From a virus (Duplodnaviria > Heunggongvirae > Uroviricota > Caudoviricetes), in IMG/VR virus record IMGVR_UViG_2778261105_000011: a stretch of 41,989 nucleotides of DNA. One strand, written 5' to 3'. A program made the translations under genes and the position numbers. Positions 8,125 through 37,086 of this stretch are shown here, piece by piece. The notes under the pieces are model-generated. The model was given only the letters and a program-made list of their open reading frames with translations. It made no database searches and was not told the origin of the DNA. Position 1 is the stretch's first letter; each line of letters opens with the position of its first letter.

Positions 8125-8748
8125 CTATGCGGCCTCGGAAGGAAGTCCAATCATCTTATTCAAATCTTCTACCCGTAAAGCAGGAAGTGCTGTACTTGCT
8201 TTATCTGCTTCTTTTGGTAGCAATTCTTTGCTTTCAGGCCAAACCTCAATAAGTCGCTTAACTGTTGTGACTGAGTTCAAAGCAGCCCATACATTTGATT
8301 CGATATCCTTTTTCTTGGCTTCAAGTTTTTGTTGCAATGCGCAGATTTCATCAAACCTTTTTGTTATTTCGTGTTCTGCGCTAAACATGCATTTATCTTC
8401 GTTCGGAGTAGGGAGCAATATATCTTCGCCGTTGCCGTCTTTCCCATATGAAAGCCATCCAACCCTTCTGCCAGATACAGTCAGATAAATTGAAATAGAA
8501 CGAACATCGTATGAGTAAAATGAACATCCCATCTTTCCAAGTTCTTCACTTATAGCTACCAACTTGGATGATAACTGATCCACTTCCTCAGTTTTCTTTT
8601 TACCGCCAAACGCAATAACTCTGGCGTCAAGTGCAAGCTGGTTCTTTAACTTTGTTACTTCTTCAAGTTCAGTGAAAACCCCAGACTTAATTAAAGCGTT
8701 ACGAGCGATTTCCTCTTTCATTCTCGTAGTTAAGCGGATTGATGACAT
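8125..8748 (-). CDS. Hypothetical protein (207 aa), first gene of cassette immediately downstream of N
   Basis: ATG at 8748 preceded by GAGAGGAA; track ORF 8125..8808 is an extension that would overlap N. No recognised domain. Confidence 0.5.
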   Translation of the reverse strand: MSSIRLTTRMKEEIARNALIKSGVFTELEEVTKLKNQLALDARVIAFGGKKKTEEVDQLSSKLVAISEELGKMGCSFYSYDVRSISIYLTVSGRRVGWLSYGKDGNGEDILLPTPNEDKCMFSAEHEITKRFDEICALQQKLEAKKKDIESNVWAALNSVTTVKRLIEVWPESKELLPKEADKASTALPALRVEDLNKMIGLPSEAA

Positions 8749-8759
8749 ATTAATTCCTC

Positions 8760-9059
8760 TCAAATAAGTGGTTTGCTGCCTAATTTCATTTTCTGGCGAC
8801 CAACACAAGTCACACCCATTTCACTGCGTGGCTTGCGGTAGTAAATACGATTCTGTTTACGCTCGACTTCTTCTGCCTTCTTGCAGCGAAGGCTTCCGAG
8901 TGATGCTGCTTTATCTGCTCTGACGCAACCAGAGAGCTTTAGCGCAATCTTTCGCGCCAGTCGCTGCTCTTGCATTGCCTGTTCACGTTGAGCCTGTCTG
9001 CGTGCTCTGCGGCGATTTCTGGCGTTATCGTCAGCCAGATATGTAATGACTACTGTCAT
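8760..9059 (-). CDS. N: N-type transcription antitermination protein
   Basis: C-terminus ...RIYYRKPRSEMGVTCVGRQKMKLGSKPLI parallels lambda N ...RTWYSKPGERGITCSGRQKIKGKSIPLI; N-terminal arginine-rich motif NARNRRRARRQAQ; ATG at 9059 with AGGAGG Shine-Dalgarno. Track ORF 8760..9131 is over-extended. Confidence 0.8.
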   Translation of the reverse strand: MTVVITYLADDNARNRRRARRQAQREQAMQEQRLARKIALKLSGCVRADKAASLGSLRCKKAEEVERKQNRIYYRKPRSEMGVTCVGRQKMKLGSKPLI

Positions 9060-9099
9060 GTTGACCTCCTGGAAGGTACACATCCTTGTGTGTCGATGA

Positions 9100-9219
9100 T
9101 TATTTGTTTTTGCGTTCCCACATCCAGTCATCTACTTCAGACCAGATAGTGAAACCGAAGCAGATGGCGAATGTGGTAACTAAACCACCGAGAATTGGGT
9201 TGGTCATGATGTCTAACAT
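9100..9219 (-). CDS. Small hydrophobic peptide (39 aa, one predicted transmembrane helix) between nutL and N
   Basis: ORF MLDIMTNPILGGLVTTFAICFGFTIWSEVDDWMWERKNK; ATG at 9219 preceded by GAGGA at 7 nt; not in the supplied track. Confidence 0.35.
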   Translation of the reverse strand: MLDIMTNPILGGLVTTFAICFGFTIWSEVDDWMWERKNK

Positions 9220-9389
9220 TTTCTGTTCCTCAGATGATTAGCTTTGGTGGTGTGGTAGGTGGGAGACCCATTTCGCCCCGCTTCGTCCGACTTCAATTCG
9301 GCAATAGTCCCGCATGCCTCGCCGCTTTACGTGCGGCATATTCCCGTCCATGAACCCTTCACCACACCCCAAAGCCAACTACTCTTTGG

Positions 9390-9431
9390 TTCCCGCATTT
9401 CGGCGGGACAATCCCATCAATGTTAAAGAGC
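9390..9431 (-). promoter_or_regulatory. nutL site: boxA-like GCTCTTTAAC followed by boxB hairpin CCCGC-CGAAAU-GCGGG
   Basis: The same 19 nt boxB sequence occurs in the opposite orientation at nutR (10546-10565); boxA resembles the CGCTCTTTA consensus. Confidence 0.6.
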
Positions 9432-9469
9432 CTGCCAATCTGTTCCGTTTGGCTACCAGCGTCCTGCTG

Positions 9470-9560
9470 ATGGCTTAAATTTAAGATCTCTTTAATTAAT
9501 GGTCAAGAGTATTTTTGAAGAAAACTTAAATTTTCTTTCGTAACTTAAGTTTGGCTTTGA
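9470..9560 (-). promoter_or_regulatory. pL / OL operator region
   Basis: Several TTAAG/CTTAA-containing operator-like half-site repeats similar to those in the OR region; located between nutL and the 3' end of the repressor gene. Confidence 0.45.
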
Positions 9561-9573
9561 TTTTTAAAGGAAA

Positions 9574-9598
9574 TAAAAAAAAGGGGCGAATGCCCCCT
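9574..9598 (-). terminator. Rho-independent terminator immediately after the repressor gene (GGGGGC-ATTC-GCCCC then T8)
   Basis: Read from the reverse complement of 9574-9598. Confidence 0.6.
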
Positions 9599-10248
9599 TA
9601 TGGAAGGTTTGCTAGTTTTGCATCGACAACTACGCCGATGATTTTGCAGTTTCCGTTGATCTCGATCATCGGATATTGTGGGTTAAGTGGTTTTAGAAAC
9701 TTCCTGCCTGCATCAATAACTAACTTCTTGAAAGTTGCCTCGTTTTCTCCTTCGAGCTTTGCAACTACCAGTTTCCCGTTACGCGGCTCTACTTCAGGAT
9801 CGACAAGTATTATCATTCCTTCAGGGATACTGAGACCGGCCGGAGCCGTCATTGAGTCTCCCTTCACGTCCAACCAAAACGAATCTTCTGAACAGTCTAC
9901 GGTTGTATCGTACCAGTTATCTATTGCACGCTTATGATATGGTTCTACAGCTTCCATCCAGCATCCTGCGCTCACCCAGCTAATCAGAGGGAATGACCCT
10001 CTTGGATCATGCCTACTGTGATAGGCAATGTTTGAAAGACTTTCCTCTCCTTTCATCAGATAGTCAGGGGAACACTTCAACGCATTAGCCAGGGCGAGAA
10101 GATTCTCTCCATTTGGCTCTGTCTCAGAGCGTTCCCACTGAGATATGGCAACATTAGACACGCCGACCATCTTTCCAAGTGCGGCCTGCCTGATCTTGAG
10201 TTCTTTTCTCCGAGCGCGAATGCGCTCTCCCATCAATTGAGTTTTCAT
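9598..10248 (-). CDS. c2: P22 c2-type immunity repressor (HTH N-terminal domain, LexA-like S24 peptidase C-terminal domain)
   Basis: 216 aa translation is near-identical over its length to remembered P22 C2 (...GERIRARRK.LKIRQAALGKMVGVSNVAISQWERSETEPNGENLLAL...); no Shine-Dalgarno before the ATG, consistent with a leaderless pRM transcript. Confidence 0.95.
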   Translation of the reverse strand: MKTQLMGERIRARRKELKIRQAALGKMVGVSNVAISQWERSETEPNGENLLALANALKCSPDYLMKGEESLSNIAYHSRHDPRGSFPLISWVSAGCWMEAVEPYHKRAIDNWYDTTVDCSEDSFWLDVKGDSMTAPAGLSIPEGMIILVDPEVEPRNGKLVVAKLEGENEATFKKLVIDAGRKFLKPLNPQYPMIEINGNCKIIGVVVDAKLANLP

Positions 10249-37018: not shown

Positions 37019-37022
37019 AGTT

Positions 37023-37054
37023 GAAGCCCCAACTGCGGGAACAGTCAGGGCTTC
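37023..37054. terminator. arc-ant intergenic hairpin (GAAGCCC ... GGGCUUC), likely terminator for arc and for an antisense sar-like RNA
   Basis: Read directly; position corresponds to the bidirectional terminator of the P22 sar/arc region. Confidence 0.45.
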
Positions 37055-37086
37055 GGTATCAACAAATCGGATTAGGAAATATTGAC

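Follow-up and report, generated by a model that had tools for sequence, protein, structure and literature searches.

A 39-codon gene for a predicted membrane peptide between a lambda-type leader hairpin and the N gene of a P22-like phage

Results and discussion

The early-left (pL) leader of the virus record IMGVR_UViG_2778261105_000011 (Caudoviricetes; 41,989 nucleotides, hereafter the window, meaning the whole stretch of DNA that was analysed) carries, between the nutL site and the start of the antiterminator gene N, a long RNA hairpin and a 39-codon open reading frame (ORF), with hairpin, ORF, nutL and N all on the minus strand. By sequence comparison, the hairpin is a homologue of the lambda N-leader hairpin that is processed by RNase III, and not a new element, whereas the ORF is a genuine conserved gene under purifying selection. 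We consider it likely that this arrangement represents a lambdoid RNase III-type leader hairpin followed by a mobile gene that is placed ahead of N and encodes a membrane peptide acting as an early lytic effector. Structured leaders of this kind have been known before; the ORF has essentially escaped annotation and belongs to a PHROG protein family of unknown function, and the slot in which it is inserted is undescribed in the literature that we searched. Our results do not overturn the current understanding of the N leader; they define a small-protein candidate well.

A lambda-type leader hairpin

The preliminary description of this region, made from the letters alone, had recognized a structured segment bounded by a long-range complementary pair. 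One arm of that pair (9362-9375, CCACACCCCAAAGC on the plus strand) stands as described, the other runs from 9241 to 9255 instead of 9240 to 9254, and the helix is longer than had been stated. The 5' arm UUGGCUUUGGGGUGUGGU (9361-9378), which contains a GGUGUG that we take to be boxC-like, pairs over 18 base pairs (bp) with the 3' arm ACCACACC-A-CCAAAGCUAA (9238-9256; A9248 is bulged), and three more pairs (9358-9356 with 9259-9257) bring this closing helix to about two turns. The 171-nucleotide (nt) segment folds at -63 kcal/mol, as against -50.0 +/- 3.8 kcal/mol for shuffled sequences (z = -3.4; matched by 0 of 200 shuffles).

Direct alignment with lambda (NC_001416) shows the stem to be homologous to lambda's GGCUUUGGGGUGUGUG / CACACACC-A-CCAAAGCU and near identical to it (GGCUUUGGGGUGUG.../...CACACCACCAAAGCU), down to the same bulged A. 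The arms UUGGCUUUGGGGUGUGGUG / CACCACACCACCAAAGCUAA of the window and AAGGCUUUGGGGUGUGUG / CACACACCACCAAAGCUAA of lambda occupy the same place in the pL transcript, directly after the boxB of nutL and ahead of the first ribosome-binding site, which follows a few nt after the 3' arm. The order in lambda is AAGGCUUUGGGGUGUGUG ... CACACACC-A-CCAAAGCUAA and then the ribosome-binding site of N, and the order in the window is UUGGCUUUGGGGUGUGGUG ... CACCACACC-A-CCAAAGCUAA and then the ribosome-binding site of the ORF. Two differences separate these leaders: the interior of the hairpin is unrelated, that of the window being of the 933W/HK97/phi80 type, and the cistron directly behind the hairpin is the 39-codon ORF in the window, with N coming 160 nt further on. 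The hairpin lies, as had been described, inside the pL transcript between nutL (boxA 9431-9421, boxB 9408-9391) and the N start codon (9059), but the Shine-Dalgarno sequence of N is 168 nt past the 3' arm, whereas in ORF-less relatives the 3' arm is directly followed by the ribosome-binding site of N. The earlier statement that lambda has no gene in this interval is right as far as the ORF is concerned, but it overlooked that lambda has the same structured element.

The comparison extends well beyond lambda. In addition to a leader alignment of the window, lambda, 933W, Louie, phage 21, CUS-3 and Gally, the sequence conserved at the start of pL transcripts (CATCAGCAGGACGC) was used to retrieve 77 lambdoid leaders with 43 distinct stem types from IMG/VR, all of a common plan: boxA, boxB, NNNUUUGG plus a variable arm of 7-9 nt, an interior (33 to about 233 nt long), the complementary arm with its bulged purine, CC(A/U)AANNN, a Shine-Dalgarno sequence and then N. 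Across the 43 stem types, 92.3% of the alignment cells are paired vs. 70% after shuffling (0 of 500 shuffles as high) and 33-42% with slid partners, although the paired percentage is inflated by the way the leaders were collected, i.e., anchored on conserved motifs and with the best-pairing 3' anchor kept (at least 14 of 17 pairs). The count of compensatory pair types is not raised by the choice of anchor, and compensatory changes were found at 14 of the 19 stem pairs, in 158 cells. The bulged purine is present at the same stem position in every one of the 43 types (A in 36, G in 7). The covariation that the preliminary description had proposed to look for in related prophages is therefore there for the closing helix; the lambda N-leader stem has been maintained by covariation across many lambdoid leader types while the interior that it encloses has been freely exchanged.

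What such a hairpin does is known from lambda, where N together with the Nus factors at NutL represses the translation of N and the intervening leader is referred to as "highly structured" (PMC5725501, citing Wilson 1997 and Wilson 2002). The lambda N leader is cited as an RNase III target (PMC5371410, citing Steege 1987; PMC9032294, citing Kameyama 1991), and its processing as activating N synthesis and lifting the N/Nus repression exerted from NUTL (PMC5725501, PMC5371410, PMC9032294). For this lambda mechanism we draw on the secondary citations in these papers and on general knowledge. The lambda nut regions also include a boxC (PMC2724277), and the arrangement resembles that of the rrn operon leader, in which a boxA Nus-factor site is followed by a boxC as one strand of a long-range RNase III-type helix (PMC2724277, PMC8632103). 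GGUGUG is the boxC sequence that the leader of the window resembles. The difference is that the RNA bracketed in the window is about 100 nt long and not an rRNA.

The base of the stem has an additional element, an upstream CCAAAG (9383-9388) complementary to the CUUUGG of the 5' arm (9374-9369). This copy could pair with the arm in a local hairpin as an alternative, or it could lengthen the closing helix at its base. In 41 of 42 leader types, the 23 nt ahead of the 5' arm include a stretch that is complementary to it over 6 bp or more, and the variants covary; the shuffle control is only weakly lower (5.7 bp vs. the observed 6.7 bp). In the minimum-free-energy structure of the window, the extended helix has at its base a pairing of the CC at 9389-9388 with the GG (unpaired probability 0.07) of the ORF Shine-Dalgarno sequence; this modelled pairing would fit with translation of the ORF being activated by processing. 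The suggestion in the preliminary description that the structured leader could regulate the ORF or N thus holds to the extent that a conserved RNA structure is placed to control the next cistron, but the hairpin did not evolve to regulate the peptide, since it is present in ORF-less phages. As a side observation, most leader types carry this upstream, second copy of CCAAAG at a distance of 7-9 nt from the 5' arm (covarying variants CCAAAC/GUUUGG and CCAGAAC/GUUUUGG), which gives a 1:2 versus 2:3 alternative-pairing arrangement.

A conserved 39-codon gene ahead of N

The 39-amino-acid (aa) ORF with a good Shine-Dalgarno sequence, as first described, is found at exactly 9100-9219; it encodes the peptide MLDIMTNPILGGLVTTFAICFGFTIWSEVDDWMWERKNK and has GAGGA (9227-9231) 7 nt before the AUG. 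A Shine-Dalgarno-like purine run is kept at the same 7-nt spacing in every ORF type, including divergent ones (GGAGA, AGGAA, GAGGG), despite differing surroundings. The ORF is intact (ATG, 39 codons and stop) in 40 of 40 loci, which comprise 19 DNA variants and 15 peptide variants, and its length is constant at 39 codons across DNA identities of 72-100%. Variable sites among the 40 loci are distributed 16/10/33 over the three codon positions, the median ratio of nonsynonymous to synonymous substitution rates (dN/dS) is 0.17, with values of 0.05-0.21 when the ORF of the window is compared with those at 72-84% DNA identity, and 21 residues are invariant (N7-P8-I-L-G11, F23-T24, W26-S27, D31-W-M-W34, R36-K-N-K39). 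Conservation in related phages, on which the preliminary description had made its reading depend, is therefore seen for the peptide (40 ORF loci) as well as for the helix-forming segments (43 stem types).

This gene has gone essentially unannotated. Of 5426 complete E. coli genomes, 31 carry it, and RefSeq annotates it in none of the 30 genomes listed with it, that is, a real 39-codon gene is missing from all of them; it is also carried by 35 IMG/VR contigs and several metagenome contigs, and its DNA was absent from 50,697 phage records. The single relative among the GTDB species representatives is a partial copy (locus L139, 1201-1251) on a 6.4-kb contig (CAZTOS010000089.1) of a metagenome-assembled genome labelled "uncultured Thermococci archaeon", and is most likely due to contamination of the bin by an enterobacterial phage.

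The positional conservation of the ORF is combined with a striking variety of neighbours. It stands behind at least five kinds of leader hairpin (933W-type, tRNA-like, Gally-like, short CUS-3/21-like and others; in locus L164, it lies ahead of a short leader hairpin), together with at least three boxB types, and the N genes that follow it have about eight kinds of N-terminus. It is absent from the same junction in Gally, CUS-3, phage 21 and lambda. Such varied partners indicate that the ORF is an independent, mobile and selected module at a mosaic hot spot. The distance from the ORF to the N start is mostly 37-40 nt (37-57 nt overall; 40 nt in the window), and this gap holds a small hairpin, ACACA-AGGA-UGUGU (9078-9091), between the ORF stop codon and the N Shine-Dalgarno sequence, which travels with the ORF module and is kept elsewhere by compensatory changes (GCACA/UGUGC, GACACACAU/AUGUGUGUC, GCAC/GUGC).

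Alternatively, it is possible that the ORF acts only in cis, its translation keeping ribosomes on the leader, coupling to or opening the N site, or preventing Rho polarity, with the peptide itself being irrelevant or a product of chance. Upstream ORFs with such cis roles exist, and the position of the ORF 40 nt upstream of N in most copies, with the conserved small hairpin in between, would suit one of them. However, the constraint on the amino acids (dN/dS 0.17, 21 invariant residues and a fixed 39 codons) goes beyond what a cis role needs, members of the family are also encoded by unrelated lytic phages, where no N gene is in the vicinity, and most lambdoid phages express N without the ORF; we regard a cis-only role as highly improbable.

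The slot itself appears to accept more than this one gene. Another insert is found between leader hairpin and N in CUS-3 (locus L001, about 880-1110), as well as in loci L036, L039 and L056; in this insert, a strong Shine-Dalgarno sequence precedes a start-stop mini-ORF AGGAGGAUUUAUGUGA and a hairpin rich in G+C, and the CUS-3 annotation gives only "boundary sequence bsq5". In locus L157, an extra small ORF (about 48 aa) precedes the 39-codon ORF. Together, these cases mark the short stretch from the stem to the N ribosome-binding site as an insertion hot spot for extra small genes. Two minor observations concern the edges of the module. On the plus strand, a T-rich run comes after the small 3' hairpin, and the site scores as terminator-like. 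Further, an 8-nt direct repeat, UAAUCAUC, brackets the ORF module on the minus strand (9233-9240, in the linker past the 3' arm, and 9095-9102, overlapping the stop codon), and ORF-less relatives have one AAUCAUC before the N Shine-Dalgarno sequence; the repeat may be a recombination junction or a coincidence.

The peptide and its possible roles

The peptide matches phrog_7482, a family of unknown function (E = 8.1e-25; residues 1-39 against positions 1-39 of the 46-position profile), which is also matched by a divergent variant of the peptide (1e-19) and by gp86 of Shigella phage Sf18 (1.6e-29), and which includes 46-aa "putative membrane proteins" of strictly lytic Mooglevirus phages. The gp86-like proteins share with the peptide the N-terminal MLDII.NPIL.G, a hydrophobic helix and a charged tail, but identity is only about 35%, the tail is DWMWERKNK in the window and DKLFDKKLLAMQNQNK in Mooglevirus, and their carriers are lytic myoviruses, where the N-leader context is lacking. 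Beyond this family, Pfam gave only a sub-threshold match to TrbC (E = 0.064; 13.9 bits vs. a cut-off of 27.9), and a full-text literature search with the peptide sequence and the PHROG identifier found no paper.

Three lines of evidence agree on the character of the product. Mean hydropathy is 1.74 over residues 9-27 (a 19-residue window), every Lys and Arg of the peptide is located in the C-terminal tail, and the AlphaFold2 model (predicted local distance difference test score 84.7) has a helix at residues 2-6, a break at N7-P8 and a second helix at 8-38. On these grounds, the peptide is predicted to be a single-pass helix of the inner membrane with its N-terminus outside and a charged, Trp-rich tail in the cytoplasm, which agrees with the single hydrophobic helix and charged tail described initially.

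One role that had been suggested for such a peptide is that of a membrane toxin, and in its most specific form this would be a depolarising, type-I-toxin-like protein whose translation is blocked by the structured leader together with an antisense RNA until the leader is processed. A small hydrophobic peptide with a single helix and a charged tail, a long structured 5' untranslated region and a Shine-Dalgarno GG that is paired in the predicted fold are what one would look for in this case, and processing-activated translation is typical of tisB, zorO and dinQ. In these respects (small size, one hydrophobic helix, structured 5' untranslated region) the ORF resembles the type I toxins Hok, TisB, ZorO and DinQ as well as the small exclusion proteins T4 Imm and HK97 gp15; it differs from both groups in that the peptide has no sequence similarity to them, nor does it have an antisense promoter or a promoter active in the lysogen. 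In particular, a consensus scan of 8700-9650 found nothing promoter-like on the opposite strand, the PADLOC defence and toxin models gave no match, the leader hairpin is general to N leaders and is present in most lambdoid phages without the ORF, and homologues occur in the strictly lytic Mooglevirus phages. Moreover, a depolariser encoded by the first cistron of the pL transcript would harm the phage's own development. The toxin idea thus fares poorly, and we give it only a slim chance.

The second role suggested initially, that of an exclusion factor, is possible, but not in the lysogen. The pL promoter (9478-9506; -35 TTGACC, 17-nt spacer, -10 TAAATT), which corresponds in the alignment to the pL and transcription start annotated in phage 21, is the sole promoter-like site that the consensus scan found in 8700-9650, and a strong terminator of the cI transcript (9599-9580) lies upstream of it, so the peptide should be made only upon pL firing and not in lysogens. 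This bears directly on the alternative that the ORF is a classical moron, i.e., a lysogenic-conversion or superinfection-exclusion factor expressed from the prophage. A small membrane protein encoded by an extra module in a mosaic hot spot would fit, and membrane exclusion proteins of lambdoid phages are known (e.g., HK97 gp15 and P22 SieA). Of the properties by which morons have been defined (Juhala et al. 2000), the ORF has that of an extra gene at a mosaic junction but not that of its own promoter and terminator: it has only the repressor-controlled pL, and there is no terminator behind it on its strand. With homologues in lytic phages as well, expression of the ORF as a moron seems to us very unlikely. 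Hence, we favor the hypothesis of an early lytic effector over a lysogenic-conversion factor or a self-toxin, based on the expected timing, the predicted membrane location and the lytic-phage relatives.

The interior of the hairpin

The closing helix of the window encloses a 933W-type cassette (9258-9360) for which RNAalifold predicts a consensus fold of four hairpins, H1 (9355-9340), H2 (9337-9321), H3 (9318-9275) and H4 (9270-9260). The GCCGC/GCGGC hairpin noted in the preliminary description is part of this consensus as H2 (9321-9325 / 9333-9337). A total of 98 phage records with unrelated flanks (nutL and N types), 933W, HK97 and phi80 among them, share this interior at 87-94% identity, and its 5' half is identical in these three phages. 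The support for the fold is limited to two pairs in H3 with compensatory changes and, in H2, a C replaced by U so that a G-U pair remains; variation is too low for more. The entire hairpin (stem and interior) is the same module, at 87-94% identity, in the N leaders of 933W, HK97 and phi80, which have their own nutL and N of other specificity types. In 933W, HK97 and Louie, the cassette directly adjoins the N ribosome-binding site; in phi80, too, the ORF module is missing between hairpin and N.

Searches for known RNA families were negative for the cassette. Rfam gave no family in 9238-9378, even at E values of up to 10 (the whole window was searched at the gathering threshold and 8700-9700 at E up to 10), its only match in the whole window being the sar RNA, away from the leader, and ARAGORN found neither a transfer RNA (tRNA) nor a transfer-messenger RNA in the window; the latter result means that the cassette is not tRNA-like, unlike the interiors of loci L008 and L097. 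The prophage small RNAs AgvB/AsxR and Pas were considered as relatives and rejected, being located at the pR'/Q region and not in the N leader. A coding role for the cassette, as a 44-aa sense frame annotated in Louie might suggest, was likewise rejected: the frame is cut by TAA in phi80 and VT2phi_272, its first ATG is lost in locus L134, and judging from these sequences the frame is probably spurious. The annotation in question is that of a "hypothetical protein" inside the leader hairpin of Louie (CDS0041; locus L005, 705-839), and in the lambda entries (loci L007 and L178) N is annotated from 35438, an upstream ATG that gives a protein of 133 aa; both the Louie gene and the upstream lambda N start are probably annotation artefacts of the structured region.

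A separate observation is that, in some related prophages, the interior of the N leader is a tRNA-like cloverleaf (L008, 1401-1482; L160 and L162, 892-973; L097, 691-760). ARAGORN reports these as tRNA-Pro(tgg) or tRNA-Leu(tag) and PGAP annotates that of L008 as "tRNA-OTHER"; all of them are below the gathering score of the Rfam tRNA family. The acceptor stem of the cloverleaf is the inner stem of the leader, GGUGUG/CACACC followed by ACCA, and the corresponding motif GGUGUGG/CCACACC-A-CCA is also found in the window, lambda and 933W. The L008-type cloverleaf occurs in one deposited phage only, Salmonella phage P6, and a literature search for tRNA-like elements in N leaders found nothing relevant.

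It is tempting to hypothesize that the 102-nt interior is itself a functional RNA that is freed by RNase III cuts and acts in trans early in infection, the stem being a generic "cassette holder" comparable to the 16S boxC/RNase III stems. The high identity of the interior in 98 records despite unrelated flanks, its four predicted hairpins with two compensatory pairs, the use of the same slot for cloverleaves (L008, L160, L162 and L097) and the resemblance of the inner stem followed by ACCA to an acceptor stem with its 3' end would all be consistent with this idea. On the other hand, other leaders have unrelated interiors, or just a bare 33-nt hairpin (L068), which means that the leader works without any particular cassette; further, there is no match to an Rfam family, variation is too low to prove the fold, the high identity may reflect recent horizontal spread, and the literature searched gave no report of a stable excised RNA. 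We consider a functional interior RNA unlikely, albeit with some real chance of being correct.

A bolder version of this idea combines RNA and peptide: because the 933W-type interior is conserved between unrelated flanks and the same slot holds cloverleaves, the stem might be a general RNase III "excision frame" for the delivery of exchangeable structured RNAs, and the peptide a co-delivered immediate-early counter-defence or exclusion factor. If true, the interval would encode two trans-acting early effectors rather than merely serve the translational control of N. We offer this as a speculation that is probably wrong, though not negligible.

Proposed mechanism

The arrangement that we favor, a lambda-type leader hairpin with a mobile membrane-peptide gene inserted ahead of N, would work as follows. 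The interior enclosed by the closing helix is exchangeable, and the window has the 933W-type one. As in lambda, the first cistron behind the hairpin would be repressed by N acting together with the Nus factors from nutL on the same transcript, and an RNase III cut in the stem would part nutL from that cistron and free its ribosome-binding site. In the window, the ORF takes the position that N has in lambda, with N following 40 nt later with its own strong Shine-Dalgarno sequence, so that repression in cis may fall on the ORF instead of, or besides, N. The peptide, made only from pL, would be the first phage protein after infection or induction and its synthesis would be independent of N. The gene of the peptide, and not N, is the first cistron behind the stem that RNase III processes in lambda, from which a brief immediate-early pulse of a membrane peptide is to be expected, and the autoregulation of N is possibly altered in this phage. 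As for its role, our best guess is that the peptide is an early lytic effector on a target in the host inner membrane, for example by blocking the entry of DNA of competing phages or by acting on a membrane-associated host function.

Several points weigh against this interpretation and should be kept in mind, besides the inflated pairing percentage mentioned above. RNase III cleavage in the phage of the window is inferred from lambda only, and the insertion of the ORF has moved N 160 nt further from the hairpin; a lambda-type autoregulation may still act on N, or may now act on the peptide. The 3' half of the ORF is nearly identical in the window-type and the closest copies, which means that part of the "conservation" reflects recent spread. 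The family is also small, with six clusters among 5.8 billion proteins (the query being the 39-aa peptide with the in-frame upstream codon, K, prepended) and seven representatives at 50% identity, one of which is a spurious repeat protein and two of which are frameshifted copies. Finally, NCBIfam and PADLOC returned nothing for the peptide and the Protein Data Bank only chance matches, and none of these searches identified a target of the peptide.

Genomic setting

The window represents a P22-like phage or prophage and is about 98% identical to its Lederbergvirus relatives Gally, IME10 and CUS-3. The match to the sar antisense RNA of the P22 immI region (37019-37085, minus strand; Rfam RF00262, 71.6 bits) confirms a P22-like genome with the ant/immI region. 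The immunity region is phage-21-like, with a cI-like repressor gene at 9598-10248 on the minus strand and cro and cII to its right. From the alignment with the annotated start of phage 21, the pL transcript probably begins at about 9471, at the A of AUCAGCAGGACGC. The nutL site (9391-9431) consists of boxA GCUCUUUAACA (9431-9421) and the boxB hairpin UCCCGC-CGAAAU-GCGGGA (9408-9391); its counterparts in the alignment are the boxA-L and nutL annotated in phage 21, and CUS-3 and Gally have an identical site.

The N gene (8760-9070, including its Shine-Dalgarno sequence AGGAGG at 9070-9065; AUG at 9059) encodes a protein of 99 aa with an arginine-rich motif near the N-terminus, which matches phrog_271 (N-like; E = 4.8e-37) and, weakly, the N_peptide family of Pfam; its DNA is about 98% identical to the annotated N of Gally and CUS-3. 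The C-terminal two-thirds of this protein are phage-21-like, while the arginine-rich N-terminus (MTVVITYLADDNARNRRRARRQ..., 8990-9059) and the boxB are both unlike those of phage 21, a pattern that, on the sequences compared, fits with the exchange of an N-boxB specificity pair.

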